From Candidatus Omnitrophota bacterium (GTDB taxonomy: Bacteria > Omnitrophota > Omnitrophia > Omnitrophales > Aquincolibacteriaceae), in the NCBI GenBank assembly GCA_035368605.1, contig DAOSLF010000001.1, positions 22,877 through 86,876 on the forward strand: a stretch of DNA of 64,000 bases. The letters are read 5' to 3'. Below the pieces are notes generated by a model. That model was not told the DNA's origin. It ran no database searches and was given only the letters and a program-made list of their open reading frames with translations. Of this stretch, positions 6,493-37,908 are shown in pieces. Position 1 is the stretch's first letter; every line of letters begins with the position of its first letter. The translations under genes were made by a program, and so were the position numbers.

Positions 6493-6494
6493 AG

Positions 6495-20646: not shown

Positions 20647-21479
20647 CCGCGAGCTTTTCGATTTCCTTGCGCGTTGTTTTGTTTTTCGTGCCGATGGTGC
20701 TGTTGTCCGTTCCCTCCGCCTCCGCGATCCGCTATGACAAGGGGACCTATCAGCGCAAGGTCTATGAGAGCAAGGCCAGGGAACGGTTGAACAGTTTCAC
20801 GGTCCAGAACTTCACGGTGCTGCATGAGGTCTCCCTGACCCGGGAGCAGGTGAGCGCTCTCACGAAGGTTATCGAAAGCGCGATCGCGACCGTCAGAAAT
20901 GATTTCCAGTTCCAGCCGACCGGCACGTATGAGGTCATGCTTTTCGCGGGCGGGACCTATGAAAAGGTAGACAGCTCCAACCAGGTGACCGCCGGATTTT
21001 ACCAGGCCAAGAAGATCCGCGTACGTTTCGGGGACAGCGCCGGTCCTCCGGGGAATCTCGGCTACTTTCGCAAAGTGTTCACGCATGAACTGACCCACCT
21101 GGCTGTCCGTTCGCTTGACGGAGGCAAAATGACCCGCTGGATGGGGGAAGGTCTTGCCGTTTATGAGGAAAAGGGAATCCGGACCCGCACTCCGTTCATC
21201 GCGAAGGAGCTTTATGAACGGCGGAACCCGAAATACCGGAAACTCACTCCGGAGCAATTCTTCGATTTTGCCGCGACCGTCAATTCGGACGGGACGTATC
21301 CCCCGGGTTTTTACGAGAACAGCTATGCGGTCACCAAATTCATCATCGATGAGTACGGCTTCCCGAAGGTGCGGGACCTTCTGAAACGCATGAAATCGGG
21401 AGCCTCGTTCAGCGCGGCGTTCAAGGAGGTTTACGGTATGACGCCGTCCGAAATGGGCGCGAAGGCTTACGGATTCTGA
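20643..21479 (+). CDS. secreted putative zinc metallopeptidase (HExxH motif)
   Basis: Signal peptide MTASFSISLRVVLFFVPMVLLSVPSASA. HELTHL zinc-binding motif. Translationally coupled (ATGA) to the upstream gene. Confidence 0.5.
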   Translation: MTASFSISLRVVLFFVPMVLLSVPSASAIRYDKGTYQRKVYESKARERLNSFTVQNFTVLHEVSLTREQVSALTKVIESAIATVRNDFQFQPTGTYEVMLFAGGTYEKVDSSNQVTAGFYQAKKIRVRFGDSAGPPGNLGYFRKVFTHELTHLAVRSLDGGKMTRWMGEGLAVYEEKGIRTRTPFIAKELYERRNPKYRKLTPEQFFDFAATVNSDGTYPPGFYENSYAVTKFIIDEYGFPKVRDLLKRMKSGASFSAAFKEVYGMTPSEMGAKAYGF

Positions 21480-21483
21480 CGGG

Positions 21484-22242
21484 TCAGATCAGGGACAGAC
21501 CGCCATCCGCGATGACGATCTGACCGACGATCCAGGAAGATTCGGGTGAGCAGAGGAATGTGATGACGCGCGCGAGGTCTTCGGGGGTTGCGACGCGGCC
21601 GGCCGGTGTCCTTTTGACGACTTCTTGCTTGAAGATCTCGAAAAAGGGGAATGCCTTCAGCGCATCCGTGTCCACAAGCCCGCCGGAGACTCCGTTCACC
21701 CGGATTCCCTTGGGCATCAGCTCCACCGCGAGATAACGGATCAGGCTTTCGAGCGCCGCCTTGGAGATACCGATGGCCCCGTAATTCGGGATGTAGCGGT
21801 GAGAACCCAGACTTGAGATCGCGAGGATCGCTCCTTCTTTTTTTGCCTCCATGCCCGGCAGGACCTTCTGGACCATGGCGAGGAAGGCCTTTGTGTTGAT
21901 GTTCATCGAAAGGTCGTATTGATTCATCTTGAGTTTGTGGACCGGCTTGAAGGCCCCGAGCGCGGCGTTGTGGATGAGGATGTCGATCGATCCAAAAGTT
22001 TTGGTGACATTCTCGAACAGCGCGGGGAGTGCGTCGAGGTCGCCGACATTGCACTGGAAGATTTCGGCTTTGACGCCTTTCAAGCGGATTTCTTCGGCCG
22101 TTTTTTGCGCGGCGCCTTCGTTCTGAAGATAATTGACCGCAATGTTCGCACCTTTTTCCGCGAGCGCGAGGGCCGTGGCTTTTCCGATCCCGCGGGATGC
22201 GCCAGTAATGAGGGCTGTCTTGCCATGAAGCGGTGTCGTCAT
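21484..22242 (-). CDS. SDR family reductase, FabL/FabG-like (enoyl- or ketoacyl-ACP reductase)
   Basis: MTTPLHGKTALITGASRGIGKA. Catalytic YGAIGISKAALE (YxxxK). Divergent from the radical SAM gene. Confidence 0.8.
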   Translation of the reverse strand: MTTPLHGKTALITGASRGIGKATALALAEKGANIAVNYLQNEGAAQKTAEEIRLKGVKAEIFQCNVGDLDALPALFENVTKTFGSIDILIHNAALGAFKPVHKLKMNQYDLSMNINTKAFLAMVQKVLPGMEAKKEGAILAISSLGSHRYIPNYGAIGISKAALESLIRYLAVELMPKGIRVNGVSGGLVDTDALKAFPFFEIFKQEVVKRTPAGRVATPEDLARVITFLCSPESSWIVGQIVIADGGLSLI

Positions 22243-22329
22243 AGGCCGAGAGAATAGCAAAGAACACCGGAAAGCTCAATTTAATTCCCCGTGGCCGGTA
22301 AAACAAATTCGGGTAAAAAAGGGAAAGTC

Positions 22330-22338
22330 TGTTATACT
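22330..22338 (+). promoter_or_regulatory. extended -10 element TGtTATACT placed 6 nt upstream of ATG (predicts a leaderless transcript for the radical SAM gene)
   Basis: TCTGTTATACTTCCGCA-ATG. The same TATACTTCCG motif recurs at 59474 and 63192. Confidence 0.5.
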
Positions 22339-22344
22339 TCCGCA

Positions 22345-23946
22345 ATGAAAGTTCTCCTGATTAATCCAAAATTCGCCCCGACGATCTGGTCGTTCGACGG
22401 TCTTCGCCCGTTCACGGGCACGAGTTTTTCGACGACCCCTCTCGGGCTCGCGACCGTCGCCGCCTTGACGCCCGCTTCCTGGGAAGTCGAAATTCTCGAC
22501 GAGAATGTCGAGCCGATCGATTTTGAAAAACCGGCCGATCTCGTTGCCGTCAGCGCCTTCAATGTCCAATACCGTCGCGCGATCGAGATCGCGCGCGAAT
22601 TCAGATCCCGCGGCCGGAAAGTGGCGTTTGGCGGACCGTATTGCAGCCTTTTTCCGGAGGCGTTCGAGGGCAAGGCCGACCACCGCATCGTGGGGGAGGC
22701 CGAGGACATTTGGCCGCTTTTTCTTCGTGATTTCGAAGAAGGCAAGGCGCTTGAGCTTTATGTGGCTCCGAAAGCGAGCGTGGATATCCGGAAGAGCCCT
22801 GTCCCGCGTTTTGATCTTATTAAGGGCGATCGATACAATATGTTTTCCCTTCAGACGACTCGAGGTTGTCCCTATAACTGTGAATTTTGCGATATCATCA
22901 TCATGGACGGCCGGAAACCCCGTACGAAGACCGTTCAGCAGGTGCTTGCCGAAGTGGACCATTGCGTTCAGCAGGGGGCCCATTACATCGTGTTCGGTGA
23001 CGCGAATTTTATCGGCAATATCGGCTTTGCCAGGGAACTGCTCACGGCCCTCGCGGATTATTCGAAAAAGAACGGCTACCCGATCGAGTTCTCATGCGAA
23101 TTGACGATCAATGTCGCCCATCACCCCGATCTTCTGGAGCTTCTTCAGGAGGCGAACTTCTACGCCGTTTTCGTGGGGATCGAATCGCCGAGGAAGCAAA
23201 GCCTCCTCGAAGCCGGAAAGTATCAGAACACGCGCGAGGACATCATCGAAGACATCAAGCGTATCCAGTCGTATCACATTTCGGTTGTTGCCGGCATGAT
23301 CGTCGGCTTTGATTCCGACGACAAGGGAATCTTCAAGGAGACCTACGATTTTCTCCAGGAACTCGGCATTGCGTTTACGACCTGCGGGACGCTGATGGCC
23401 CTGCCTCACACGCCGCTCCTTAAACGCCTTAAGGCCGAAGGGCGGCTTCTCGATCTCGAGTGGACGGGCATGAACGGTCACGGCGCTTCGGACTGCAATT
23501 TCATCCCGAAGCTCATGACGCTCGACGAACTGCGTAAAGGCTATAATTGGCTTAGCCGCTGCCTCTATCGTTACGATAGTTACGCTGACCGCCTTGTCGC
23601 CACGCTGAACCGTTTCAGGAACCGTAATAAAGAACATAAAAGAGCGAGTCTCGACACGAAATTCCTGAGCGTTCTCGTCAAGGTCTTCGCCTATTACACG
23701 CTGACCTTCGATCTCAAAAGGATGTCGTTTTTTTACGGAACCATGTGGCGTGTCGCGGTGGGCGGGCCCTTTTCTGTCGGGAAATGGCTGGAATTCTTCC
23801 GCTGGATCGCGACGCATCGCGCTTTTCGCCAATATGTGATGGAAACCCAGGGAGATCCGGAAGAAATGGATCCCAACTCGCCTCCGTTCGATGTCGAGTG
23901 TGCCCCGGTCACGGACGACAGTCCCCGGGAAGAGGTGTTGGTTTAA
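22345..23946 (+). CDS. B12-binding-domain radical SAM enzyme (class B radical SAM)
   Basis: N-terminal cobalamin-binding-like domain (MKVLLINPKF...DLVAVSA). Radical SAM cluster motif CPYNCEFC. About 530 aa with a C-terminal extension. Confidence 0.8.
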   Translation: MKVLLINPKFAPTIWSFDGLRPFTGTSFSTTPLGLATVAALTPASWEVEILDENVEPIDFEKPADLVAVSAFNVQYRRAIEIAREFRSRGRKVAFGGPYCSLFPEAFEGKADHRIVGEAEDIWPLFLRDFEEGKALELYVAPKASVDIRKSPVPRFDLIKGDRYNMFSLQTTRGCPYNCEFCDIIIMDGRKPRTKTVQQVLAEVDHCVQQGAHYIVFGDANFIGNIGFARELLTALADYSKKNGYPIEFSCELTINVAHHPDLLELLQEANFYAVFVGIESPRKQSLLEAGKYQNTREDIIEDIKRIQSYHISVVAGMIVGFDSDDKGIFKETYDFLQELGIAFTTCGTLMALPHTPLLKRLKAEGRLLDLEWTGMNGHGASDCNFIPKLMTLDELRKGYNWLSRCLYRYDSYADRLVATLNRFRNRNKEHKRASLDTKFLSVLVKVFAYYTLTFDLKRMSFFYGTMWRVAVGGPFSVGKWLEFFRWIATHRAFRQYVMETQGDPEEMDPNSPPFDVECAPVTDDSPREEVLV

Positions 23947-24029
23947 AAGATGCGGGATTGTCTCGGGATTGTCGAGGACCCGGATCCGCGGGCGAACCGG
24001 CCGAATGCTCCTCTCTTATAAAAAGATGC

Positions 24030-24059
24030 TTGGGAGCTAAAAAGTCCCTGTGTTATAAT
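24030..24059 (+). promoter_or_regulatory. strong candidate promoter: -35 TTGGGA, 18-nt spacer with TG, -10 TATAAT (TGtTATAATTCCG)
   Basis: Read directly in the rSAM-methyltransferase intergenic region. Confidence 0.55.
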
Positions 24060-24095
24060 TCCGAACCCTTGAACAGGGCAGGGACCATTTCTATT

Positions 24096-24731
24096 GTGGA
24101 ATCGCTCTCAAATACACTTCGGACATACCAGCGAAAACTGTTGGATACGTTAGTCAGGTGTCATTTTCGTCCGACGCTCGAAGCGAGGGCGGAATCATTC
24201 GTCAGGCTCTTTGAAACGTTTCTCCCGAAAGGGAGCCGGATTCTGGACCTCGGCGGCGGCTGGGGGTTCTATAGCGAACCGCTTGCCCGGCGCGGGCACG
24301 ATTCGCTCGTTCTTGATGTCGTAAAGCCGGGATATCAAAAGGCACCGGTTGTCATTTACGACGGGAGCAAGATCCCGTTCGGGGACAAAAGCTTTGATGT
24401 AACCCTCCTTGTGACCATGTTACATCATGTGCCGGACCCGGAGGCGCTGATGCGGGAGGTGACGCGCGTGACGCGCTCGCGGGTGGTCGTGGTCGAGGAT
24501 CTTTATCATCATGGAGCGGGACGTTTCTGGACCATCCTTCGGGACCGGTTGCTCAATATGGAGTTCGTGGAACATCCGCATCAGTTCCGGACCCACGGGG
24601 ATTGGCTTCATTTTTTTTGTAGTAAGGGGTTCCGGCTTGAGAAGTTCGCGCGGGTCTATACTTGGCTCGCGGGATTCCGTATTCTGAACGGTGTTTATGT
24701 TTGGGAGTGTGAACCATCGCTCCGCCATTGA
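24096..24731 (+). CDS. class I SAM-dependent methyltransferase
   Basis: Motif I ILDLGGGWGF and motif post-I VLDVV. The start is uncertain; the in-frame GTG at 24096 is the first start downstream of the promoter. Confidence 0.65.
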   Translation: MESLSNTLRTYQRKLLDTLVRCHFRPTLEARAESFVRLFETFLPKGSRILDLGGGWGFYSEPLARRGHDSLVLDVVKPGYQKAPVVIYDGSKIPFGDKSFDVTLLVTMLHHVPDPEALMREVTRVTRSRVVVVEDLYHHGAGRFWTILRDRLLNMEFVEHPHQFRTHGDWLHFFCSKGFRLEKFARVYTWLAGFRILNGVYVWECEPSLRH

Positions 24732-24766
24732 GAACGATACGCGGGGAATGACATCAAGGGCAGGAC

Positions 24767-25177
24767 ATGTCCACTGTTTCGATCGAAAAAGTGCTCTGGA
24801 TCAGGGAGGGAGAAGGGATCGCCGCTTGCGGCCGCATCCCGAGTGACTCGGAGTTTTTTCGCGATCATTTCCCCGAGTTCCCGGTCCTGCCGGGCGTGCT
24901 GGCGCTTGAGATGCTCAAACAGACAGCCGAGAAGTACTTGGCGTCGCTTGGGAACGGCGCGGGGGGCCGTTATTTCCTGAAGCATATCCGCGCGACGCGT
25001 TTCACGAAATATCTGCGTCCCGGGGACGAATGGGAAAGCCGGCTCACGCTGACGCAGAGTTCGGACGAAGAAACGGCTTGGGACGCCAGGCTTTATTATC
25101 ACGGTGAGGTCGCGGTATCCGCCAGACTGACGCTCGCCAGGGTCAAGAATCCTCAATCATCGGCGACATCGTTATAA
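24767..25177 (+). CDS. FabZ/FabA-like hot-dog 3-hydroxyacyl-ACP dehydratase (catalytically competent)
   Basis: FFRDHFPEFPVLPGVLALEMLKQ contains the catalytic His (HFP) and Glu of FabZ. Confidence 0.8.
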   Translation: MSTVSIEKVLWIREGEGIAACGRIPSDSEFFRDHFPEFPVLPGVLALEMLKQTAEKYLASLGNGAGGRYFLKHIRATRFTKYLRPGDEWESRLTLTQSSDEETAWDARLYYHGEVAVSARLTLARVKNPQSSATSL

Positions 25178-25196
25178 CGCAAGGAAAAGGAGAATC

Positions 25197-25607
25197 ATGA
25201 ATAACGAGATTTTCAAGAAAGTGCAGGAAACATTAGCCGGCGCGCTTGGTGTTGACGCCTCTGACGTCACGCCCGACGCCTCCCTGAAGAGAGACCTTGG
25301 CGCCGAATCGATCGATTTTATCGACATCATCTTCCGCCTGGAAAAAAGTTTCGACCTCAAGATTCCCGCGAACGACCTTTTCCCGAGCCATATCTTCACG
25401 AACGAACGTTTCGTGAAAGAGGGAATGGTCACTCCGGAAGGGATTCATGAACTCCGCACGAAACTTCCGTACCTTGACCTCGGGGCTTTCGACAAGGACC
25501 CGCAGGTTGTGAAGCTGGCCGATTATTTCACCGTCAAGATGATCCTCCGTTATCTGGAAGAGCGGCTGGGAAAATCCTCGGGTTGTTCCGGCACCTGCAA
25601 ATCGTGA
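25197..25607 (+). CDS. acyl carrier protein with roughly 55-aa C-terminal extension
   Basis: AAGGAG RBS. DLGAESIDFIDIIFRLEKSF is the ACP phosphopantetheine-attachment helix II region (Ser in AES). Unusual C-terminal tail ending SSGCSGTCKS. Confidence 0.8.
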   Translation: MNNEIFKKVQETLAGALGVDASDVTPDASLKRDLGAESIDFIDIIFRLEKSFDLKIPANDLFPSHIFTNERFVKEGMVTPEGIHELRTKLPYLDLGAFDKDPQVVKLADYFTVKMILRYLEERLGKSSGCSGTCKS

Positions 25608-25978
25608 CGGTCAAAACGCGCCGTCTTCATGGGGTCGGGGTCGATCTCGTATCCCGTTCGCGCATGAAAATGTTTCTGTCCCGCCATCGCGATATGATCA
25701 CGCGCAGGTTCCTGAATGACAGTGAGCGCCGGCGCCGCACCAACATCGGTCTCACGGAACTTGCGGAACTTTTCACCGCCAAGGAAGCTTTCTTCAAGGC
25801 CTGTAATGAGCCCTGGATGGGGTTAGGAGGTTTTCGGGGAATGCGGATCACGGAACGTCGCGGCGACGGATTCACCATGGAATGGAAGGTAGCTGGCACC
25901 CGGCGATGTTATCGCGGTGAGGGGGTTTTTTTCCGTGACGGTGATCTGGTCGGTGCCCACACGATGATCTGGAGTTGA
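25604..25978 (+). CDS. acpS: holo-ACP synthase (4'-phosphopantetheinyl transferase, AcpS type)
   Basis: GVGVDLV near the N-terminus and FTAKEAFFKA match AcpS motifs (GxGxDxV, AxKEAxxKA). GTG start overlaps the ACP stop (GTGA). Confidence 0.7.
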   Translation: MTVKTRRLHGVGVDLVSRSRMKMFLSRHRDMITRRFLNDSERRRRTNIGLTELAELFTAKEAFFKACNEPWMGLGGFRGMRITERRGDGFTMEWKVAGTRRCYRGEGVFFRDGDLVGAHTMIWS

Positions 25979-25980
25979 GT

Positions 25981-26415
25981 ATGCGTTGGCTTCTTCTTGA
26001 CAAAGTTCTCTCGATCCACCGTGGCAAACGAGCCGTGACCGAATCCCGTGTTCCCTGCGCGCCCTACTCAAGCGAAGTCCTTTTTGTCGAAATGATGGCC
26101 CAGACCGGAGGTCTTCTGGTCGGAGCGGAAAGCGATTACCGGAACGACGTGATCTTCGCGAAGATCGAGTCTGCTTCGTTCGCCGGGGTTCCGGCCCCAG
26201 GTACTCCGATCACGGTTGAGGCGTTCGCGGACGGGCTCGCTCCCGAGGGTGGGTGGATCGAAGGTGTGATAACAATGGCCGGCGTGGTCATCGCGAAGGC
26301 AAAACTGCTTCTTATGTCTGTCGGGCGGCTCGTCCCGGGGCATTCTCAACCCATCACCTTCCATGATAATTTCATGGAGCATTTCAAGGTCCGGGAGAAG
26401 GTGTCGGTATCATGA
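25981..26415 (+). CDS. hot-dog fold dehydratase-like protein lacking the catalytic His (probable non-catalytic DH partner)
   Basis: Hot-dog length and FVEMMAQTGGLL central helix resemble FabZ, but there is no HxP/HFP motif. Confidence 0.6.
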   Translation: MRWLLLDKVLSIHRGKRAVTESRVPCAPYSSEVLFVEMMAQTGGLLVGAESDYRNDVIFAKIESASFAGVPAPGTPITVEAFADGLAPEGGWIEGVITMAGVVIAKAKLLLMSVGRLVPGHSQPITFHDNFMEHFKVREKVSVS

Positions 26416-27701
26416 CCAGGCACCGGGTGGTCGTCACGGGGTTTGGTGTTATCAGCGCCTGCGGGAACGGATGGGAACCCTATTGGGACAGCGCTCTCCA
26501 GGGACGCTCGGCGGTTCGTGAAGTCGAACGTCTCAAACTGAACGGATTTTCTTTCAAATATGCCGGAACGATTCGGGATTTTGACCCCAAACAATACGTG
26601 GAGAACCGAAAATCCCTCAAGGTCATGTCCCGCGAGATCCAGCTCGCCGTGGGGGCCGCGAAGCTTGCCCTCCAGGATGCCGGTCTTTTCGGGACCGCTT
26701 ATGACCAGTCCCGCTTCGGTGTGACGCTCGGGACCGGTATCATCAATAACGATCTTGACGAGATCGGTGTGGGTTTCAAGAACGCGATCGATGGCTCGGG
26801 ACGTTTTTCGATGGCGAAGTTCGGCCAGGAAGGTGTCCGCTCTCTTTTTCCGCTCTGGTTCCTGAAATACCTTCCGAATATGCCTGCCTGTCACGTTTCG
26901 ATCGCTTACCATCTCCGGGGACCCAGCAACACGATCACGACATCCTCGGCGGCGGGGGCCCAGGCGATCGGGGAGGCGTATCGGGTGATCGAGCGCGGCG
27001 ACGCGGATATCATGCTGGCCGGCGGGACCGATTCAAAATTGAATGCGATGGGGATCTCCCGTTTCCATCTGCTCGGTCTTCTCTCAAAACGGGCCGGATT
27101 GCCGGAGCATGTCTACACGCCGTTCGATGAGCGTCACGACGGGATCGTGCTCGGGGAAGGAGCCGGCATTCTTGTTCTGGAATCGCTGGAGAACGCGAAA
27201 CGGCGCGGGGCTCCCATCTATGCCGAGATCACGGGTTATGGTTCCTCTTCGGATTTCAATTTCGATCCGCGTGACGAGGATGATTTCACCGGCAAGCGGG
27301 TCGCGATGCGGCGAGCGCTCGAAGACGCGGGGATCGAACATCACGACGTCGATGTGATCGTCGCAAACGGGAGCGGCGTTCCCCAGGGGGATATCCAGGA
27401 AGCCCTTGCCATCCACTCGTTCTGTATGGGGTCGTTCGACAAACAGAGCGTGACCGCGCTCAAATCCGTGACGGGAGATCTCGTCTACGGCTCGGGTGGT
27501 GTCGAGGCTGTGATCGCCGCGTTGATCGCCAACAAGCGGGTCGTACCGCCCGTGACCAATCTTAAAAAACCTTATCCGGAATGTCCGCTGCCGCTTGTCC
27601 GGGACAAAGCCAAGTCCGCCGACGTCACGAACGTCATGTTCAACAACTTCGGTTTCGGCGGACAGAACGCGTCACTGGTGTTCAAACATGTCAAAGCGTA
27701 G
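26412..27701 (+). CDS. ketosynthase-like protein lacking Cys/His/His catalytic triad (chain-length-factor-like KS-beta)
   Basis: Thiolase-fold KAS architecture. Active-site positions read ITTSSAAGAQAIGEA (Cys to Ser), DVIVANGSGV (His to Asn) and KSVTGDLVYGSGGVE (His to Asp). ATGA coupling to the upstream gene. Confidence 0.85.
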   Translation: MTRHRVVVTGFGVISACGNGWEPYWDSALQGRSAVREVERLKLNGFSFKYAGTIRDFDPKQYVENRKSLKVMSREIQLAVGAAKLALQDAGLFGTAYDQSRFGVTLGTGIINNDLDEIGVGFKNAIDGSGRFSMAKFGQEGVRSLFPLWFLKYLPNMPACHVSIAYHLRGPSNTITTSSAAGAQAIGEAYRVIERGDADIMLAGGTDSKLNAMGISRFHLLGLLSKRAGLPEHVYTPFDERHDGIVLGEGAGILVLESLENAKRRGAPIYAEITGYGSSSDFNFDPRDEDDFTGKRVAMRRALEDAGIEHHDVDVIVANGSGVPQGDIQEALAIHSFCMGSFDKQSVTALKSVTGDLVYGSGGVEAVIAALIANKRVVPPVTNLKKPYPECPLPLVRDKAKSADVTNVMFNNFGFGGQNASLVFKHVKA

Positions 27702-28983
27702 GATCGTCGTTACAGGAGTGGGGGCGGTGACGCCTCTCGGGAACAATGTCAGGGATACCTGGCTCCGTGTCACACAGGGTAAATCGGGGATCGGTCCTAT
27801 TACGCTTTTTGACGCCTCGACGTTCAACACGCGGATCGCGGGCGAAGTGAAAAATTTCAATTTTGAACGCTGGCTCGAACGGAACCCGCCACTCGCGTCT
27901 GCCACGCGCAGTACGTTCTTCGCGCTTCAGGCCGCCGCGGAAGCCTATAAAGACGCGATGTTGAAGCCGTTCAGTGTTGATTCGCGGCGCTTCGGCCTTT
28001 ATTTCGGTGCCGGGGACAGCGGAATCGATTTCGAGCCGTTTATCAAGACCCTCATGGCCTCCTTCGGCCCGGGCGCCGAGTTGGTCGATAAGGGGAAATA
28101 CCTCCACCATGCCCCGGAACACATGAGCGCCTTGCGCGAGCTCGAAAGCCAGCCGTTCATGACGGTAACGCATCTGACGCGCCTTTTCGACATCCGGGGT
28201 CCCGTGTCGAACTGTCTGACAGCCTGCGCGGCTTCCTCGCAGGCGATCGGCGAAGCTTACGAATGGATCAAGCGCGGTGATGCGGATGTTATGATGTCGG
28301 GCGGTTCTCATTCCATGGTCTATCCGCTGGGTATCGCGGGTTTCAGTCTCCTGACCGCGCTGTCGACGCGTAATTCGGAGCCCGAGAAAGCGTCGCGGCC
28401 GTTCGACAAGAAACGTGACGGTTTTGTGATCTCGGAAGGCGCTGGCGTGCTGATTATCGAGGAACTCCAGCACGCGAAGAAACGCAAGGCGCATATTTAT
28501 GGTGAGGTTGTCGGCTACGGTTCGACAGCCGACTCGTACCGGCTTACGGATATGGATCCGGAGGCTCGCGGGGCCTCGGAGGCGATGCGGATCGCGATGA
28601 CGAAAGCCGGCATCGGACCCGCTGACGTTGATTACATCAACGCGCACGGGACCTCGACCTCGGTCAACGACTCTCTTGAAACAACCGTAATCAAGAAGGT
28701 CATGGGGGAGTATGCGAAGAAGATCCCTGTGAGCTCGACCAAATCGATGCTTGGGCATATGATCGCGGCGGCGGGTGGTGTGGAAGCGATCTTCTGCCTG
28801 CTCGCAATGCGTGATTCGATCATCCCTCCGACGATCAATTATGAAGAGCCCGACCCGGAACTCGATCTGGACTATGTTCCCAACGTTGCCCGCCGCACCG
28901 ACGTGAATGTCGCGCTTTCCAACTCATTTGGCTTCGGCGGTCAGAATATCTGCTTGGCATTGAGGAGATACGATGGCGCATGA
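27688..28983 (+). CDS. beta-ketoacyl-ACP synthase (FabF-like KS-alpha, catalytic)
   Basis: Start MSKRRIVVTGVGAV. CLTACAASSQAIGEA (Cys), YINAHGTSTSVND (His) and KSMLGHMIAAAGGVE (His). Overlaps the KS-beta 3' end by 14 nt. Confidence 0.9.
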   Translation: MSKRRIVVTGVGAVTPLGNNVRDTWLRVTQGKSGIGPITLFDASTFNTRIAGEVKNFNFERWLERNPPLASATRSTFFALQAAAEAYKDAMLKPFSVDSRRFGLYFGAGDSGIDFEPFIKTLMASFGPGAELVDKGKYLHHAPEHMSALRELESQPFMTVTHLTRLFDIRGPVSNCLTACAASSQAIGEAYEWIKRGDADVMMSGGSHSMVYPLGIAGFSLLTALSTRNSEPEKASRPFDKKRDGFVISEGAGVLIIEELQHAKKRKAHIYGEVVGYGSTADSYRLTDMDPEARGASEAMRIAMTKAGIGPADVDYINAHGTSTSVNDSLETTVIKKVMGEYAKKIPVSSTKSMLGHMIAAAGGVEAIFCLLAMRDSIIPPTINYEEPDPELDLDYVPNVARRTDVNVALSNSFGFGGQNICLALRRYDGA

Positions 28984-30064
28984 TCTTGTTTTTATGACCG
29001 GAGCGACCGGTGTGCTCGGTCAGGAGCTTGTCAAAAAACTGCTGCTCACGACGGAGTCCGATATCGCGATTCTTTCACGCGCGAAGAATCGCGTGCCCCA
29101 TGCCGAGCGTGTCCGGAAGATCCTGAAGGCGGCGGGGATGGACGCCCATTTCGGTTCGCGGGTCCGCGTGGTGGAAGGGGATGTCACGAAGCGTAAATTC
29201 GGATTGAAGAAAGAGGATCTCGATTTTCTCGAAAGGGAATGCCGCGTTTTTTATCATATTGCCGCCCTGACCGCGTTGAATGGAACGGATAAGGAATGCC
29301 AGCAGATTAATGTGGGCGGGACCGAACACGCGCTTGAGCTTGCGTGGGATCTCCGGAAAAAGGGGAATCTCGAGCGCTTTATCTATTTCAGCACCGCGTT
29401 CGTGGCCGGCAGTGTCTGGAATTACCGGTCTACGGAGGATTCGCTTCCCGAGAAACCCGCATTTGCAAACTACTACGAGTCCAGCAAGCATGAGGCAGAA
29501 GGCAAGGTCCGGAAGGCGATGGGACACGGCCTGCCGGTGACCATCATCCGGCCGAGCATCGTGGTCGGCGACTCCGTGACGGGCGAGGTTTCCGATTTTA
29601 ACGTGATCTACCCTTTCATCAAACTGTTCGCGCACGGCATCCTGACGAAGCTTCCGACCCACCCTGAGAATACGTTCAATATCGTGCCGATCGATTTCGT
29701 CATCAACGCGACGACGGCCATCGTCAGGAATCCCCGATCGATCAACAAGTGTTTCCATCTGGTGTCGCCGGAGCCGCCTTCCATCGGTTCCCTGGTGGCT
29801 CTCCGCGAATCTTTCCCGAAGGTCGCCAAGATCGAGATGATCGATCCGTCGAGCTTTAAAAAGGACCAGCTGGACCCGCAGGGGCAGATGGTCTTTTCGA
29901 TGCTGGAGCCCTATCTCGGTTATTTGAACGGCAAGTTGACCTTCGACACCTCGAACACCGAAGAAATCCTGCGTGATACGGACGTCCGGATGCCTGAGAC
30001 GGGTCCCGCTTTCCTGAAAACGCTGATCACCTATGCCGCCAAGGCGGGATATTTGGCGATCTGA
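28973..30064 (+). CDS. stand-alone thioester reductase (NAD(P)-dependent, extended SDR; fatty acyl-ACP/CoA reductase-like terminal R domain)
   Basis: FMTGATGVLGQELVKKLL (TGxxGxxG) and YYESSKHEAE (YxxxK) with the overall TR-domain layout. Overlaps the KS stop. Confidence 0.75.
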   Translation: MAHDLVFMTGATGVLGQELVKKLLLTTESDIAILSRAKNRVPHAERVRKILKAAGMDAHFGSRVRVVEGDVTKRKFGLKKEDLDFLERECRVFYHIAALTALNGTDKECQQINVGGTEHALELAWDLRKKGNLERFIYFSTAFVAGSVWNYRSTEDSLPEKPAFANYYESSKHEAEGKVRKAMGHGLPVTIIRPSIVVGDSVTGEVSDFNVIYPFIKLFAHGILTKLPTHPENTFNIVPIDFVINATTAIVRNPRSINKCFHLVSPEPPSIGSLVALRESFPKVAKIEMIDPSSFKKDQLDPQGQMVFSMLEPYLGYLNGKLTFDTSNTEEILRDTDVRMPETGPAFLKTLITYAAKAGYLAI

Positions 30065-30577
30065 CGGGTTCCGGAGCGTTTCGGTATGTTTTTAGCGGCG
30101 GATCGGAAATAGCGCAAATCCGATCGGTCCAGGGAGCGCATGAAGGAGATGCCCTCCGGTCAGTTGTTCCATCCGGTGCGCGTTTTTTGTCGTGCTTCTT
30201 GTCTTTCTTGCCTGTCCCTCTATCCCCGAATTAGCGGCCGACCCTGTATCTGTCTCCGCCACGGATAACGCATGATAATGTCAATGTTCTTATGCAAGGA
30301 TTGAGAGGCGTTTTCTCGAAGATCAGTTCCCGGACCCTGTTTTTCAGCCCCTAGGGATTTTTATCGGTGTGAATGGCGGGGGGGGATATGAGGTTCTGGT
30401 CACGGGCATCGGAAGATTGGTTTGCGCGGGCCATTCCACCCGATCCTTTCGAGATACGGGCGCTTTTTGATCCCGTCAGCCTATGCCGGGAAAGCCGCTC
30501 GGGCCAGCCGGAACCGGGATGGTCGCGTTGCTTCAAAAGAAAAAACAATGGCCAAGGCGGAATAGGGGTTTTTATTT

Positions 30578-31753
30578 CTATCGCCAGTGTGTCGGGTGTT
30601 TCAGCGCGGCCATTTTCAGGGCATCCGCGAGGATGAGCGTGAAAACGGCGGCGGCAAGCGGATGAAACAATGCTGATACCGGATTCGCCTTGACTATCGT
30701 ATGGGTCTTAAACGCCGTGATCCAGATGATGAACGCAAGTCCTGTCGCCAGAATCCCGGCCAGTGAATTTCCGAAACAGAAAGGCAGGATGGCGAACGGT
30801 AACACCGAAAAAAGAAAAGTGCTCAGGACACAGCGTAGAAGGTCCGCCGGATTTTGTTCAAAGGCGTGAAGGTAGATGCGCCGCCACCCCCGCCATAGCG
30901 TCTCGAACGAGTCATACATCCGGGTACCATAGAGATTCATTCCGAAAGCGCAAATCCCCTTTGCCCCGGTTTCCTTGGTCTTTCTCATCAGCGCGAAGTC
31001 TTCGAGAAAAGCCTCCTTGACCGCGTGATGACAGCCGAGTTTCCGGTAATGGCTGTGCCGGAGAAGGAGGTACTGGCCGTTTCCGAAGTAGACCTTTGAT
31101 TCGGGATCGTTGATCTTCCGGACAGGGAACCATAGCCCCATGTAGCCCATCGCGCAGGGCTGGATGAGGTTTTCCCAGAAGCCGTGAGCCAGACAGCGGG
31201 GAAGCAGGGTCAGGAGGTCAAGGGAGTTTGTTTCCGAAAAAGCGATCGCGGCGTCGACGCTTCCCGGTTCGTGTCTTGTGTCGGCGTCCGTGAAAAGCAG
31301 CCAGTCGCCTTTGGCGTAGTCTTTGCCGAGATGAAGCGCATAGTTCTTTCCCGTCCAGCCTTCAGGAGTCTCGGGAGTATTGAGATATCCCAAAAAGGGT
31401 CCGTCGCTACTGTCCTTTTTTGTACCGAAAAAGGTGCCTGACCCCTTGATTTCCTCAGCGCCAAGGTCTTTCAGGATCGCTTCGGTTCTGTCTGTGGAGC
31501 CGTTATTGATGACGATGATCTCATCGCTCTCTCGGAGCTGGCTCAAAAAGGGCCGGACGCATGCCGCGATGTTTTTTTCCTCGTTCCGGGCCGGGATCAG
31601 GACCGTCACAGAACCTTTGCGAATGTTTCCGGAAGGAATTCTGAGCGCGGGGGCTTGGGCCAGTTCGGAGAGGGACCGGATGCTACGGTAAATCCATACA
31701 CCAAGCGCAGTCAGGAGATAGGTCAGGAGGATGGGCTCCATAGAGTCAGGCAT
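30578..31753 (-). CDS. membrane-anchored GT2 glycosyltransferase
   Basis: N-terminal TM, VLIPARNEE, IIVINNGSTDRT and FTDADT (DxD), plus C-terminal hydrophobic helices. Start assumed at MPDSMEPILLTY. Confidence 0.7.
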   Translation of the reverse strand: MPDSMEPILLTYLLTALGVWIYRSIRSLSELAQAPALRIPSGNIRKGSVTVLIPARNEEKNIAACVRPFLSQLRESDEIIVINNGSTDRTEAILKDLGAEEIKGSGTFFGTKKDSSDGPFLGYLNTPETPEGWTGKNYALHLGKDYAKGDWLLFTDADTRHEPGSVDAAIAFSETNSLDLLTLLPRCLAHGFWENLIQPCAMGYMGLWFPVRKINDPESKVYFGNGQYLLLRHSHYRKLGCHHAVKEAFLEDFALMRKTKETGAKGICAFGMNLYGTRMYDSFETLWRGWRRIYLHAFEQNPADLLRCVLSTFLFSVLPFAILPFCFGNSLAGILATGLAFIIWITAFKTHTIVKANPVSALFHPLAAAVFTLILADALKMAALKHPTHWR

Positions 31754-31821
31754 CTTAGCAAATGGAGATGGCGGGTCAAGGAAAACTATCAACGGCTAGC
31801 ATTTCTAATCGTTGGGATGGA

Positions 31822-31850
31822 TTGATTATTGGAGGCGCCTGGCTTATAAT
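31822..31850 (+). promoter_or_regulatory. canonical sigma70 promoter for lysS (-35 TTGATT, 17-nt spacer, -10 TATAAT)
   Basis: TTGATTattggaggcgcctggctTATAAT lies about 100 nt upstream of the lysS ATG. Confidence 0.6.
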
Positions 31851-31949
31851 ACTCGCTCTTCACCATAAACCTTTTCCGCCACAAGGCATAGGTTGGTTCC
31901 GCGCTTGCGATGGTAAGTCGGTCATGCTAAAGGCATAAGGATAAACGAC

Positions 31950-33371
31950 ATGAGTGTTTCAGATTACGGAGCCCGGTTTCTTCCCAAAGAGTCCCTTGCC
32001 GGGATCGTTTCCGATTTCCAGCCCGGGCGAAAGGTCCGCGTGGCGGGGAGACTCATGTCCCGCCGTGATATGGGCAAGAGCACGTTCGCAGACATCAAGG
32101 ATGAAGGCGGACGCATTCAGACCTATGCCAAAAAAGACGTGCTCGGCGACGAATCTTACGCCGCGTTCAAGTCGCTGAGTTTGGGTGACATCATCGGGCT
32201 TGAGGGCGAGCTCTTTCTCTCGAGAACGGGCGAGAAGACGATCAAGATCGAAAAGTATGAGCGGCTTTCCAGGATCGTCCGCACACTCCCGGAGAAATGG
32301 CACGGCCTGAAGGATATCGAGACGCGTTACCGCCGGCGGTATGTGGACTTGATCGTCAATGATGAGGTCCGCGAAACTTTCAGGAAGCGGAGTCGCATCA
32401 TCAGCGAGATACGTAAATTCCTCGACGCTAAAGGATTCATGGAGGTCGAGACCCCCATGATGCAGCCTCTCGCGGGAGGTGCCCGCGCCAAACCGTTCGT
32501 GACGCATCACCATGCCCTCGCGACCGATCTTTACCTGCGTGTTGCTCCCGAGCTGTATCTGAAGCGACTTCTGGTGGGCGGTTTCGAAAAGGTGTATGAG
32601 ATCAACCGGAATTTCCGCAACGAGGGAATCTCCGTTCGCCACAACCCCGAATTCACGATGATGGAGCTTTACCAGGCGTACGCGGATTACACGGACATGA
32701 TGAGCATCACCGAAGAACTGGTTCGTCATCTGGTGATGATGCTTTATGGCAAGGACGAAATCCCGTACGGGGATCGCACCCTGAATTTCAAGGCCCCGTG
32801 GAAGCGGATTTCCTTTTACGGCGCTCTCGAAGAGACGACGGGGATGGATTTTCGCAAAGTGAACGTGCGGGAAGCCGCGAAAAAACTTCACGTCAAATTC
32901 GACGAGGATATGGAGGATATCGATGTCCTGAATGAGATCTTTGGTGAGAAGGTCGAGAAAAACCTTTGGGACCCGACGTTCGTCGTCGATTATCCGACGG
33001 TCATGACGCCCCTCGCGAAGGCGAAGGCGGAAGACCCTGAGCTTGTGTACCGGTTCGAACTTTTTATCGCCAAAATGGAAGTGGCGAATGCCTTTTCGGA
33101 GCTGAACGATCCCGCGGTCCAGCGCGGGCGGCTTGAAAAACAGCAGGAGTTGATCGGCGAGCACAAGGAGATCGATGATGATTTCCTGATGGCGCTTGAA
33201 TACGCGATGCCTCCGGCGGGGGGGCTCGGCATCGGTATCGACCGACTCGTGATGCTGCTCACCAACCGGATTTCGATTCGGGATGTGATCCTGTTCCCGC
33301 AACTTAAGCCGAAGAAGAAGGCTGAATTGGAAAACGAAATGGAAACGACGGAAGAAGGTTCCGCTCAATGA
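31950..33371 (+). CDS. lysS: lysyl-tRNA synthetase (class II)
   Basis: OB-fold N-domain (KVRVAGRLMSRRDMGKSTFADIKD). Class II motifs (FRNEG, GGLGIGIDRLVMLLT). Confidence 0.9.
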   Translation: MSVSDYGARFLPKESLAGIVSDFQPGRKVRVAGRLMSRRDMGKSTFADIKDEGGRIQTYAKKDVLGDESYAAFKSLSLGDIIGLEGELFLSRTGEKTIKIEKYERLSRIVRTLPEKWHGLKDIETRYRRRYVDLIVNDEVRETFRKRSRIISEIRKFLDAKGFMEVETPMMQPLAGGARAKPFVTHHHALATDLYLRVAPELYLKRLLVGGFEKVYEINRNFRNEGISVRHNPEFTMMELYQAYADYTDMMSITEELVRHLVMMLYGKDEIPYGDRTLNFKAPWKRISFYGALEETTGMDFRKVNVREAAKKLHVKFDEDMEDIDVLNEIFGEKVEKNLWDPTFVVDYPTVMTPLAKAKAEDPELVYRFELFIAKMEVANAFSELNDPAVQRGRLEKQQELIGEHKEIDDDFLMALEYAMPPAGGLGIGIDRLVMLLTNRISIRDVILFPQLKPKKKAELENEMETTEEGSAQ

Positions 33372-34678
33372 AATTCGAGCTTTTTATCGCCCACAGGCAT
33401 CTGACCCGGCGACGGAAGACGGGATTCATCTCCCTTATTTCGTTGATATCGATGGGCGGGATCGCGATCGGTGTGATGGCGCTTATTATTGTGCTTTCGG
33501 TCATGACCGGGTTCGATAATGAACTCAAACGCAAGATCGTCAGCATCCAGCCGCATCTCCGGATCGAAAAGTCGGAGGATTGGACGAACTCGGCCGACGA
33601 TATGGCGAAGATCCGGGCGTTAAACATCCCCGGGCTCAAGATTGTAATGCGATTCATCGAAAAGCAGGCGATCCTTCGCACCGATACCGCCGCGCAGGGC
33701 GTGGTGGTGATGGGGCTGGATACGGAGAACGGGGATTTTTCGATCTATGAAAAGAATCTTGTGTCCGGGACGCTTGGTTTCCAGGAGTCCGTTTACACGG
33801 AAAAGAGACGCCGCTGGTGGTCCTTCAAAAGCAAGGTCGAGAAGTCGAATGTCCCCAGTATCGTGCTGGGCGAGATCCTGGCTTCCCGGCTTCGGGTTCA
33901 GGTGGGGGATGTTATCCATCTGATCACGCCGGAGCCCGAAAAAAAGAACCCGTTCATGCCGCTCCCGATGCATGTCAAGACGTGGCCGGTCATCGTGCGG
34001 GGGATTTTTCATATCGGGATGTCCGATGCCGACGCCCAGGTGGCGTTGCTCAGCCTTGAGACGGCCCAAAAGTTCTATCACATGGAGAATAAGATTTCGG
34101 GACTGAGTCTTCAGTTCAGCGATGTGGATGAGGCGGAAAAATGGAAGTGGGTTCTGGCGGGTCATTTCCCGATGCAGTACCGGCTCGCGTCCTGGTATGA
34201 CATGAATCAGCATTTTTTTCAGGCGCTGAAGGTCGAAAAATTCCTCATCAGCATTCTGCTCTCCCTGATCGTTGTCGTGGCGGCGTTCAATATCATTTCG
34301 ACCCTGATCATGGTCTCCATGGAAAAGACCAGGGATATCGGGATCCTCCGCGCCCTTGGGGCCACGCGGTCCGCGATCCGGAGAATCTTCCTGATCGAAG
34401 GGATGAGTTACGGGTTCTGGGGAATGGTGATCGGCGTGGGCATGGGCGTGTGGGGGGCGCTTCACATCAACGATCTTTCGGAATTTCTCAAGACGACGTT
34501 CGGATTCGAGGTTTTCCCGAGAGATGTTTATATTTTTGACAGAATTCCGGCGGAAGTCCGCATGGAGGATATCATGGTGGTCGCCGGGCTGGCGTTCATT
34601 CTTGCCGTGATCGCGGCGCTTTATCCCGCGCACCGGGCAGCAAGCCTCAAACCGGTGGAGGCGCTTCGTTATGAATAA
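33368..34678 (+). CDS. lipoprotein-releasing system permease (LolC/LolE, FtsX family)
   Basis: MKFELFIAHRHLTRRRKTGFISLIS. Four TM helices with a large periplasmic loop. Confidence 0.8.
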   Translation: MKFELFIAHRHLTRRRKTGFISLISLISMGGIAIGVMALIIVLSVMTGFDNELKRKIVSIQPHLRIEKSEDWTNSADDMAKIRALNIPGLKIVMRFIEKQAILRTDTAAQGVVVMGLDTENGDFSIYEKNLVSGTLGFQESVYTEKRRRWWSFKSKVEKSNVPSIVLGEILASRLRVQVGDVIHLITPEPEKKNPFMPLPMHVKTWPVIVRGIFHIGMSDADAQVALLSLETAQKFYHMENKISGLSLQFSDVDEAEKWKWVLAGHFPMQYRLASWYDMNQHFFQALKVEKFLISILLSLIVVVAAFNIISTLIMVSMEKTRDIGILRALGATRSAIRRIFLIEGMSYGFWGMVIGVGMGVWGALHINDLSEFLKTTFGFEVFPRDVYIFDRIPAEVRMEDIMVVAGLAFILAVIAALYPAHRAASLKPVEALRYE

Positions 34679-35366
34679 CGCGGCGGCGATCCTCAGCGCA
34701 TCCGGACTGCGGAAGGATTATGACACCGTGACCGGTAGCCTCGAAATCCTGCGAGGGGTTAATCTGGAGGTTTGCCAGGGGGAAATGCTTTACATCACGG
34801 GTAAATCGGGGTGCGGGAAGTCGACCCTGCTTCATCTCCTGGGCGGTCTTGACCGACCGACGGACGGGAAGCTTTTCTTTCGGGGGCGTGAGATGACCGG
34901 CATGCCCGAACGCGAGATCGCAAGAATCCGCTGTCGCAATATCGGTTTCGTGTTCCAGTTCTATCATCTGTTGCCGGAGCTCACGGTCCATGAAAATGTA
35001 TTACTCCCCACACTTATCGCGAAAAAAAAGGACTCGGGCTGGGTCAAGGAGGTTCTGAAACGTGTGAAGCTCTGGAACCGGAGGACGCATTTCCCGTCCG
35101 AGCTCTCCGGCGGGGAGAAACAGCGCGTGGCGATCGCCCGGGCCCTCGCCAATCGACCGGACGTCGTTCTTTGTGACGAACCGACCGGCAATCTCGACGA
35201 AGAAACGGCCGGGACGATTACGTCGTTGCTCGCGGAATTGAACCAGAAAGAGGGTCACACATTTCTTATCGTGACCCATGATGAAGAAATTGCCCGGACA
35301 GGGAGCCGGTCGCTGACGCTTCACGAAGGTCAGCTGATGCCGGCTTCGAATGTTTTTAAACATTGA
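34671..35366 (+). CDS. lolD: lipoprotein-releasing system ATP-binding protein
   Basis: Walker [13 protein letters not shown] signature [15 protein letters not shown], Walker [13 protein letters not shown]. Confidence 0.85.
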
Positions 35367-35398: not shown

Positions 35399-36304
35399 AT
35401 GGAACTTCAAATCTATATCGACGGTAAATGGTATCCCAGGAGTGAAGCGAAAGTGTCTGTCTTCGATCACGGCCTTCTTTACGGAGACGGTGTTTTTGAG
35501 GGGATTCGCGCCTACGATGGAATCGTCTTCAAGCTCGAGGAGCATCTCAAACGGCTCTGGGAGTCGGCCCATACGATCATGCTCGAAATTCCGATGACGC
35601 CCAGGGAAATGGAAAAAGCCGTTATTGAAACCCTTCGCAGGAACAAGCTGACGAGCGGCTATATCCGACTGGTCGTCACGCGCGGCACGGGGGACCTCGG
35701 ACTATCGCCCTTTCTCTGCAAGAAACCGACAGTTTTCATTATCACGGACAAGATTGCACTTTATCCGGCGGATTTGTACCAGAAAGGGTTGGAGATTATC
35801 ACCGTTCCGACCGTCCGGAATCTCCCCGAGGCCGTGAATCCGTCGATCAAAAGCCTGAACTATCTCAATAATATCATGGCCAAGATCGAGGCAAGGAACG
35901 GCGGTTGTATGGAAGCGCTGATGCTCAACCACCAGGGCTACGTCGTAGAATGCACGGGTGACAATGTGTTCATGGTCAAGAAAACCGGCAAGGGGTCGGC
36001 CGTGAAGGATTGCACGCTTTTGACGCCTCCGTCCTATCTCGGAGCGCTCAAGGGGATCACGCGTGATGCGATCATCGAGATTGCCCGCAAACTCAAACTG
36101 CCTTTCGCGGAAAGAATCCTGACGCGGCATGATTTTTTTAACGCCGATGAGGTATTCCTCACGGGAACGGCGGCGGAGGTCATCCCGGTCGTCAAGATCG
36201 ACGGACGCGTTGTCGGAAGCGGTAAGCCGGGCAAGATTACCAAACTGCTTTTGGAGGATTTTCACGCGCTGGTCCGCAAGGACGGGGTCCGGTTCTCCCT
36301 TTGA
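35399..36304 (+). CDS. ilvE: branched-chain amino acid aminotransferase (class IV PLP)
   Basis: AAGGAG RBS. YGDGVFEGIRAY and EVFLTGTAAEV motifs. Confidence 0.85.
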   Translation: MELQIYIDGKWYPRSEAKVSVFDHGLLYGDGVFEGIRAYDGIVFKLEEHLKRLWESAHTIMLEIPMTPREMEKAVIETLRRNKLTSGYIRLVVTRGTGDLGLSPFLCKKPTVFIITDKIALYPADLYQKGLEIITVPTVRNLPEAVNPSIKSLNYLNNIMAKIEARNGGCMEALMLNHQGYVVECTGDNVFMVKKTGKGSAVKDCTLLTPPSYLGALKGITRDAIIEIARKLKLPFAERILTRHDFFNADEVFLTGTAAEVIPVVKIDGRVVGSGKPGKITKLLLEDFHALVRKDGVRFSL

Positions 36305-36326
36305 TCGGGCCGGGAGCGAAGCGAAC

Positions 36327-37905: not shown

Positions 37906-37908
37906 CCC

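Follow-up and report, generated by a model that had tools for sequence, protein, structure and literature searches.

The stretch of DNA analyzed here, referred to below as the window, comprises 64,000 nucleotides from a Candidatus Omnitrophota bacterium (assembly GCA_035368605.1, contig DAOSLF010000001.1, positions 22,877 to 86,876 of the forward strand). It carries a run of genes, packed or overlapping on the forward strand, that begins with a methyltransferase, continues through a dehydratase, an acyl carrier protein (ACP), a phosphopantetheinyl transferase (PPTase), a second hot-dog protein and two FabF-type ketosynthase (KS) paralogs, and ends with a stand-alone thioester reductase (TR), the gene with which this study is chiefly concerned. 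A membrane-bound family-2 glycosyltransferase (GT2) gene faces the reductase from downstream, and a divergent short-chain dehydrogenase/reductase (SDR) and a radical S-adenosylmethionine (SAM) protein are encoded upstream of the run. Coordinates and supporting matches are collected in Table 1.

The reductase gene and its product

The start codon of the reductase gene lies within the 3' end of the KS gene, giving an overlap of 11 nt (ATGGCGCATGA), and an AGGAG box resembling a Shine-Dalgarno sequence sits 7 nt upstream of this ATG, inside the KS coding sequence. An overlap of 8 or 11 nt between the KS stop and the TR start recurs in 53 of 58 orthologous loci. Because of this overlap geometry, we infer that translation of the two genes is probably coupled. 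The open reading frame (ORF) itself is real and stands well above chance: a collection of 5.8 billion proteins yielded 329 homologs at E <= 1e-3, the best near 1e-200 and nearly all 355 to 390 aa in length, and a protein identical to the one described here is encoded on 24 metagenome contigs. Those homologs that bear a source name were labeled Candidatus Omnitrophota. An antisense ORF at 29075..29758 on the reverse strand is a shadow of the TR gene.

A hairpin with a T-rich tail, found by a consensus scan directly after the TR stop, resembles a terminator; the total of such sites in the region was not above shuffled expectation. The gap that separates the reductase gene from the convergent GT2 gene measures 513 nt in the window (30065-30577) and only a few bases in distant orthologs. 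An Rfam scan of positions 19000-33000, this gap included, returned no RNA family.

Every test that we ran supported the assignment of the protein to the terminal-reductase type of thioester reductase among the extended SDRs. In Pfam, it matched PF07993 (NAD_binding_4, the acyl/thioester-reductase family) over the whole profile (4.4e-53; 180.5 bits against a cut-off of 20.1), and PF01370 (Epimerase) at 6.8e-16. In NCBIfam, the thioester reductase domain model TIGR01746 was matched at positions 2-371 of 371 (E = 4.2e-48), with a score of 164.5 bits where the curated cut-off is 213.35. Next came the N-terminal half of a two-domain bacterial fatty acyl-CoA reductase (FAR), NF005539 (PRK07201), matched at profile positions 4-338 of 657 only (2.8e-46; 158.5 bits, cut-off 549), followed by the reductase domains of MxcG, Lys2-type enzymes and carboxylic acid reductases (CARs); sugar enzymes appeared only from 1e-16 downwards.

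Other types of acyl reductase were considered and rejected. Enzymes of the FAR type are recognized by a FAR_C/Sterile domain or a second SDR domain and reach about 510-660 aa, whereas the present protein ends at residue 363, and the Pfam scan found in it neither PF03015 (FAR_C/Sterile) nor a second SDR domain. Reductases of the acyl-ACP reductase (AAR) type or the LuxC/aldehyde dehydrogenase (ALDH) type were set aside likewise, as the protein matched only SDR-superfamily models in Pfam and NCBIfam and its structural neighbors are SDRs; TabE, the acyl-ACP reductase of tambjamine synthesis, is an ALDH-type enzyme and not homologous. No carrier or synthase domain is fused to the TR.

Solved structures pointed in the same direction. 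A profile built from 12 members of the TR family and searched against all Protein Data Bank (PDB) sequences found as its best match the terminal R domain of MxaA (4u7w/4w4t; 1.6e-42, about 25% identity) and as its second a polyketide synthase (PKS) thioreductase domain of Streptomyces coelicolor (8v1x; 7.6e-33). These were followed by an archaeal T-R didomain of a nonribosomal peptide synthetase (NRPS), the Nrp R domain of M. tuberculosis, a rice FAR (7eoz) and CARs, and the best sugar-type SDR reached 1.4e-9. An AlphaFold2 model computed from 80 homologs (pLDDT 92, pTM 0.92) has the expected strand-helix arrangement at TGxxGxxG. When this model was compared with the PDB by Foldseek, ranks 1-23 were all thioester, fatty-acyl or carboxylate reductase domains, with a TMq of 0.83 to MxaA R over about 374 columns versus about 0.65 for sugar epimerases. 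As modeled, the overall fold and the C-terminal substrate-binding subdomain appear closest to those of solved R domains.

The Rossmann motif reads T9-G-A-T-G-V-L-G16, and the sequence YESSK supplies Y168 and K172. TGxxGxxG, Arg36 (after strand 2), Asp70, Ser140-Thr141 and Tyr168xxxLys172 are near-invariant in the 80-sequence alignment and conserved in 60 of 66 loci. Ser140-Thr141 and Tyr168xxxLys172 align with VST and YAQSK of MxaA, and Arg36 with the Arg of its LVRSK, an equivalence that hints at the use of NADPH. The R domain of MxaA, from the myxalamid PKS-NRPS, shares with the TR the Rossmann motif, the Arg after strand 2, the Ser/Thr-Tyr-Lys residues and the C-terminal subdomain; it differs in that it terminates an assembly line of many domains and draws its substrate from a carrier fused to it, whereas the TR is a separate protein of a dissociated system.

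These results bear out much of the original prediction, which had described an extended SDR of 363 aa and of terminal-reductase type, with TGATGVLG and YxxxK motifs, overlapping the KS stop codon and unfused to any NRPS or PKS module. The competing identity named there, a sugar epimerase or dehydratase, was rejected, since it compared worse than acyl reductases in Pfam, NCBIfam, PDB sequence and PDB fold. The prediction overstated the case in calling the reductase unusual. An exhaustive HMMER search for the family found 414 cluster representatives at E <= 1e-30 and 6055 at E <= 1e-10, and stand-alone proteins are common among them: 139 of the best 150 representatives were under 500 aa and 11 were longer than 500 aa. 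There is precedent as well in the zeamine pathway, where the discrete TR Zmn14 is proposed to release a long alkyl chain from the ACP of a fatty-acid-like synthase (PMC5811116). As an enzyme the TR is unexceptional, and its class is well known.

The operon, its conservation and its relatives

We scanned one genome per species and recovered 66 TR loci, almost all in metagenome-assembled genomes (MAGs) of Omnitrophota; the frequencies of cassette genes were counted only in loci with enough flanking sequence, which gives the denominators 37, 41 and 43. The cassette was present in about 60 Omnitrophota species genomes and was retained down to 47% TR identity. The ACP, the second hot-dog protein and the catalytically dead KS were each found in all 41 cassette loci, the methyltransferase in 40 of 41, and the FabZ/ApeI-like dehydratase and the PPTase each in 38 of 41. 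The FabL-like SDR was present in 30 of 37 loci and the radical SAM gene in 4 of 37. A GT2 gene lay within 6 kb 3' of the TR in 41 of 43 loci, leaving two cassette loci without one, and the housekeeping gene lysS is likewise syntenic with the cassette. The importance of the locus resides in this cassette, conserved across an almost entirely uncultured phylum, and not in the reductase alone. It is an uncharacterized, phylum-wide variant of known reductive-release lipid pathways, and it indicates that clusters of its kind include a reductive release step.

To judge from their catalytic positions, the downstream KS is active and the upstream FabF paralog is dead. The C-H-K-H pattern of the active enzyme occurs in 58 loci. 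Pairwise alignment places Ser, Asn, Lys and Asp of the upstream protein at KS positions C179, H319, K351 and H356, and the Cys is replaced by S, A, V, T or F in most orthologs. The pair therefore has one subunit with Cys-His-His and a partner without the active-site Cys, the arrangement by which a KS and its chain length factor (CLF) are recognized. Membership of the upstream protein in the classical CLF clade was rejected, as there is no Gln at the Cys position and solved FabF structures are nearer (2.8e-79) than the actinorhodin CLF (8.4e-43); it appears to be CLF-like in role while lying outside that clade. The earlier description likened the cluster to a fatty acid synthase (FAS), but an active KS coupled with a dead FabF paralog, together with an ACP and a PPTase of its own, makes it no plain FAS. 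No ketoreductase and no malonyl transferase are encoded in the cluster.

The closest solved structures to the FabZ/ApeI-like dehydratase are FabZ. The second hot-dog protein has no Pfam match and lacks the HFPxxPxxPG catalytic-His motif, reading RVPCAPYSSEV instead. Since it is conserved more widely (41/41) than the dehydratase that has the motif (38/41), it may form part of a heterodimeric dehydratase or have another role. The ACP, presumed to be the substrate carrier of the TR, bears an AESID serine motif that is present in 47 loci, and it owes its length of 136 aa to a conserved insertion of about 45 aa between the helix II/III region and the last helix. This insertion is common to the window and to the distant relatives L074 (5115-5534) and L075 (15709-16107) and is absent from the ACP of L073; shielding of the chain or docking of the reductase are possible roles.

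A promoter-like site, a consensus match only, precedes the methyltransferase gene at 24030-24059. The radical SAM gene lies between the FabL-like SDR and the methyltransferase genes, and its occurrence in so few loci marks it as an accessory insertion outside the core. Its best NCBIfam match is TIGR04072 (the 'ladderane' lipid radical SAM family) at 79.8 bits, far under the cut-off of 360. On both grounds we rejected it as a core partner with ladderane-like chemistry; it may carry out a lineage-specific modification of the chain.

The closest TR homologs outside the phylum, at 46-51% identity, come from Tautonia, a Planctomycetales MAG, an Acidobacteriota MAG and Defluviicoccus. The neighborhoods of these four contain no KS or ACP; two of them include a methyltransferase, and that of Defluviicoccus also a sulfotransferase, so that these settings bear only on the idea of hydroxyl modification taken up below. 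More distant homologs recovered by the HMMER search (38-40% identity) lie again in KS-KS-TR cassettes. In L074, a class-III aminotransferase is encoded about 7 kb 3' in the same direction. In L075 and L076, a second PF07993 paralog is convergent to the reductase of the KS-KS-TR module (L075:11113-12189 and L076:4086-5162, both on the reverse strand), with two DUF1571 proteins alongside, and the catalytic triad is kept in both KS genes of L075. TR homologs at 39-46% identity in L073 and L068 (10001-13364) adjoin sulfotransferases, a hint that reductases of this family also serve in the synthesis of sulfated alkyl lipids.

Table 1. Features of the operon and its surroundings in the window, with the composition of cassettes in distant relatives
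Feature	Position	Strand	Matches, basis or content
FabL-like classical SDR (probable enoyl-ACP reductase), 252 aa, divergent	21484..22242	-	NF005975 FabL 306 bits (cut-off 328) vs FabG 173 bits
B12-binding radical SAM protein with DUF4070, 533 aa	22345..23946	+	PF04055, PF02310, PF13282
Class I SAM-dependent methyltransferase, 196 aa, opening the conserved operon	24141..24731	+	PF08241 4e-14
FabZ/ApeI-like dehydratase, 136 aa, DHFPxxPxxPGV motif	24767..25177	+	PF07977 1.3e-11; PF22818 ApeI-like (precomputed match)
Dedicated ACP, 136 aa	25197..25607	+	PF00550 5e-12, residues 8-62 only
AcpS-type 4'-phosphopantetheinyl transferase (PPTase), 124 aa	25604..25978	+	PF01648 1.6e-11
Second hot-dog (FabZ-like) protein, 144 aa	25981..26415	+	Weak NCBIfam FabZ match, 1.6e-7
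FabF paralog predicted to be catalytically dead (CLF-like partner), 429 aa	26412..27701	+	Cys to Ser, His to Asn, His to Asp
FabF-like KS, 431 aa, Cys179, His319, Lys351 and His356 kept	27688..28983	+	TIGR03150 fabF 487 bits (cut-off 493.75)
KS/TR junction: AGGAG box, TR ATG (28973), KS stop TGA (28981-28983)	28961..28983	+	Direct reading of the sequence
Stand-alone thioester reductase (TR/FAR-type extended SDR), 363 aa	28973..30064	+	ATG to TGA
Terminator-like hairpin (30071-30084) and T-rich tail	30071..30094	+	Consensus scan only
Membrane-bound GT2 (HpnB/CruG-like), 387 aa, convergent	30578..31741	-	TIGR03469 HpnB 4e-36, CruG 4e-31, both under cut-offs
L074 cassette			ApeI-like dehydratase, 139-aa ACP, PPTase, DUF1571, KS, KS, TR, hot-dog protein, radical SAM, ATP-binding cassette (ABC) exporter, 769-aa glycosyltransferase resembling monogalactosyldiacylglycerol (MGDG) synthase, deacetylase, aminotransferase
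L075/L076 cassette			SDR, KS, KS, TR, second PF07993 paralog, DUF1571 x2, ApeI-like dehydratase, 132-aa ACP, SDR
L073 neighborhood	2043-11965		KS, TR, ACP, hot-dog protein beside genes for synthesis of phosphoadenosine phosphosulfate (PAPS), MMPL transporter, sulfotransferase, 3043-aa type I PKS

Proposed reductive release and its alternatives

Reductive off-loading from the operon's own ACP is the simplest way to read the conserved operon and the likeliest, and we consider it probable that the TR releases the cassette's ACP-bound chain in this manner. The TR would be a soluble protein acting on its own, an NAD(P)H-dependent thioester reductase that catalyzes the final step of a dedicated acyl-chain synthase of the dissociated (type II) kind. 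In such a synthase, the PPTase of the operon would activate its ACP, the FabF-like KS and the dead FabF paralog would extend the chain, and the two hot-dog proteins would dehydrate it. The FabL-like SDR, together with housekeeping FabD and FabG, which are not encoded here, would complete the cycles, and the methyltransferase would modify the chain or its primer. The TR would then dock on the acyl-ACP and, with Thr141, Tyr168 and Lys172 as catalytic residues, reduce the carbonyl of the acyl-S-phosphopantetheinyl thioester by hydride transfer from NAD(P)H. Collapse of the hemithioacetal would yield free holo-ACP and an aldehyde, and a second hydride transfer would probably give the primary alcohol. 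The convergent membrane GT2, in which one N-terminal hydrophobic stretch (discerned by eye and under the scan threshold) and two to three C-terminal hydrophobic segments were found, is a candidate user of this alcohol and would probably glycosylate it, giving an envelope lipid of the alkyl-glycoside type.

That the released product is an alcohol, and is then glycosylated, we hold with roughly half the confidence given to reductive release itself. The best-matching R domain, that of MxaA, carries out a four-electron reduction to the alcohol, which makes a second reduction here plausible. An alcohol that is subsequently derivatized is suggested by the variable neighbors of TR-family genes, which modify hydroxyls. 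The window has a GT2 in this place, L074 has a large glycosyltransferase accompanied by an ABC exporter, and L073 and L068 have sulfotransferases. This argument from guilt by association is the weakest link in the proposal. The widest version of it, in which the cassette and the membrane GT2 form a pathway to a fatty-alcohol-based (alkyl glycoside) envelope lipid throughout Omnitrophota, with the KS-KS-TR module reused in other phyla for sulfated or exported lipids, is speculative and, taken as a whole, unlikely. Under it, the product would belong to a class of lipids without glycerol that has been found until now chiefly in the heterocytes of cyanobacteria, and its synthase would be a dissociated one, with a KS paired to a dead KS and an ACP carrying the insertion. 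Should the product prove to be a lipid derived from a fatty aldehyde or alcohol, the cassette would provide a testable gene-to-lipid hypothesis for the membranes of Omnitrophota and for orphan alkyl lipids of anoxic environments, as well as a compact reductase-ACP pair for fatty alcohol production.

Several observations weigh against the pathway proposed above. The KS- and ACP-free settings of homologs at 46-51% identity mean that the TR family is not obligatorily tied to the ACP of the operon. With neither a ketoreductase nor a malonyl transferase in the operon, the proposed cycle relies on unseen housekeeping enzymes. The TIGR01746 score below its cut-off places the TR outside the NRPS/PKS-embedded subfamily curated by NCBI. 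Proximity of the GT2 gene could be mere conserved gene order; since lysS is syntenic too and two cassette loci have no GT2, adjacency alone is no proof.

A first alternative is that the TR is a general fatty acyl-CoA reductase, or a housekeeping acyl-ACP reductase, which makes alcohols from the ordinary acyl pool and stands beside the KS by gene order only. It does share its Pfam family with the FARs, matches NF005539/PRK07201 over the N-terminal half of that model, and has the rice FAR 7eoz among its top structural matches; the homologs in other phyla that have no KS or ACP neighbors would fit such an enzyme as well, and Zmn14 takes acyl-CoAs in vitro (PMC5811116). Against it stand the overlap of the TR start with the KS stop in 53 of 58 loci, the presence in the same operon of a dedicated ACP in every cassette locus and of a PPTase in nearly all, the return of the KS-KS-TR order in distant relatives, and the absence from the TR of a FAR_C/Sterile domain and of a second SDR domain. 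We regard a general FAR as distinctly unlikely.

Release might instead end at the aldehyde, as a true intermediate that is then transaminated or condensed, as in the zeamine, coelimycin and koreenceine pathways. The second-best PDB match, 8v1x, is a thioreductase domain from an S. coelicolor PKS, possibly the synthase of coelimycin, a pathway in which the aldehyde undergoes amination. In L074 the class-III aminotransferase stands about 7 kb 3' of the reductase. Many TR domains stop at the aldehyde, which is transaminated in the zeamine and koreenceine pathways (PMC5811116, PMC6498172). The conserved Omnitrophota cassette, however, has no aminotransferase, and the nearest one in the window, IlvE (35399-36304), lies 5 kb 3', beyond lysS and lolCDE, and looks like a housekeeping enzyme. 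The best structural match, the R domain of MxaA, ends the myxalamid PKS-NRPS pathway with a four-electron reduction to the alcohol. We regard an aldehyde end point as about as unlikely as a general FAR.

The same findings bear on the suggestion in the original prediction that the released product could feed an amination or ether-lipid route. Neither has fared well. For amination, the cassette lacks an aminotransferase, IlvE is remote from it, and an alpha-oxoamine synthase (588-1901) lies 27 kb off. For ether lipids, AGPS, PlsA and ElbD-like genes were not seen among the window proteins scanned, a set that did not extend to several genes beyond the cluster, among them those at 54-64 kb. Neither route finds support in the genes conserved around the reductase: an ether-lipid enzyme is no more part of the cassette than an aminotransferase is, the conserved neighbor is a membrane GT2, and relatives adjoin glycosyl- or sulfotransferases.

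It is very improbable that the TR stands in for the ketoreductase missing from the operon and reduces a beta-ketoacyl-ACP or another ketone, and not a thioester. Points in favor are that the cassette has no FabG-type ketoreductase, its one remaining SDR being closest to FabL by score, that OleD-type 3-oxo reductases were matched weakly (2.9e-14), and that Zmn14 reduces 2-octanone in vitro (PMC5811116). All of the strongest sequence and structure matches are nevertheless to thioester or carboxylate reductases, L075 keeps its TR although it has a separate SDR/ketoreductase next to its ACP, and the position of the TR as the last gene suits a release step. Almost certainly wrong is the idea that the TR is a sugar-nucleotide epimerase or dehydratase preparing a donor for the adjacent glycosyltransferase: the extended-SDR fold, the neighboring HpnB-like GT2 and weak matches to PF01370, to HpnA ('hopanoid-associated sugar epimerase', 9.2e-16) and to RmlD are outweighed by reductase profiles about 37 orders of magnitude better, by the PDB comparisons (1.4e-9 for the best sugar-type SDR versus 1.6e-42 for MxaA, with the lower TMq noted above), and by a gene that is co-oriented and overlapping with the KS gene and not with that of the GT2.

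Known systems and genome setting

The reductive release proposed for the TR has a characterized stand-alone counterpart in Zmn14, which can reduce the thioester to the aldehyde and the aldehyde to the alcohol, prefers NADH, and provides an aldehyde that is transaminated (PMC5811116). The partner of Zmn14 is a type I complex resembling a polyunsaturated fatty acid (PUFA) synthase (PMC5811116), unlike the type II operon of the TR, and the two are likened by description only. The heterocyte glycolipid (hgl) pathway of cyanobacteria, in which a KS, a CLF, an ACP and a thioester reductase domain (TER) are followed by HglT, leads to fatty-alcohol glycosides (PMC10569477, PMC11804610). Its overall logic is the one proposed here, a KS/CLF synthase followed by formation of an alcohol by the TER and addition of a sugar head group, and the hgl island is accompanied by an ABC exporter, as in L074; the likeness lies in pathway logic. 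Unlike the dissociated cassette described here, the hgl pathway works with multidomain PKS proteins of type I, and it is restricted to cyanobacteria.

Dissociated KS/CLF pairs, an ACP and a proposed aldehyde-forming reductive release occur together in the non-canonical type II PKS that makes koreenceine in Pseudomonas (PMC6498172). There the proposed reductase is no PF07993 SDR: it is an AAR-like domain (COG5322) that shares a polypeptide with an aminotransferase, and the product is aminated and cyclised (PMC6498172).

The 'ladderane-type' cluster of anammox bacteria encodes amxACP, amxFabZ, FabF2, FabF, a phytoene-desaturase-like protein and a B12 radical SAM protein; its function is unproven, and the portions of its descriptions available to us mention no thioester reductase (PMC2649909, PMC10139942). 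It shares with the present locus a dedicated ACP, a FabZ paralog, two FabF paralogs, one of them with a deviant active site, and a B12 radical SAM protein (PMC2649909, PMC10139942). Membership of the locus in this type was rejected: positions 21484-31741 contain no phytoene-desaturase-like gene, such as the anammox cluster has, and the radical SAM protein falls far short of the TIGR04072 cut-off and is confined to 4 of 37 loci. 'Ladderane' biosynthetic gene clusters have been reported in Omnitrophota MAGs (PMC9902471). In the searchable literature, whose coverage leaves out most subscription journals, no account of a type II cassette that joins a KS to a dead KS and closes with a PF07993 reductase came to light.

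The outer flanks of the cluster encode housekeeping and envelope proteins (SecA, Lnt, EF-P, LysS, LolCE/LolD, IlvE, McsAB, ClpC, MlaEFD and IspDF), and GC content is 0.56 both inside the cluster and outside it. Given this setting and composition, the cluster looks native and not like an imported island. Genes for envelope-lipid trafficking (Lnt, LolCE/LolD, MlaEFD) and a McsA-McsB-ClpC module lie near the cassette (17331-18848, 33368-35366, 44061-46474 and 36129-42130); the latter module is better known in Gram-positive bacteria.

Two further loci toward the start of the window were noted. The alpha-oxoamine synthase, encoded on the reverse strand, scored 430 bits against serine palmitoyltransferase (cut-off 640) and 409 bits against BioF (cut-off 426) and could take part in the synthesis of sphingolipid-type or other amino-lipids. 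Positions 2609-9853 of the forward strand, a possible protein N-glycosylation locus, encode a 915-aa STT3/PglB-like oligosaccharyltransferase followed by GT2 and GT4 glycosyltransferases.

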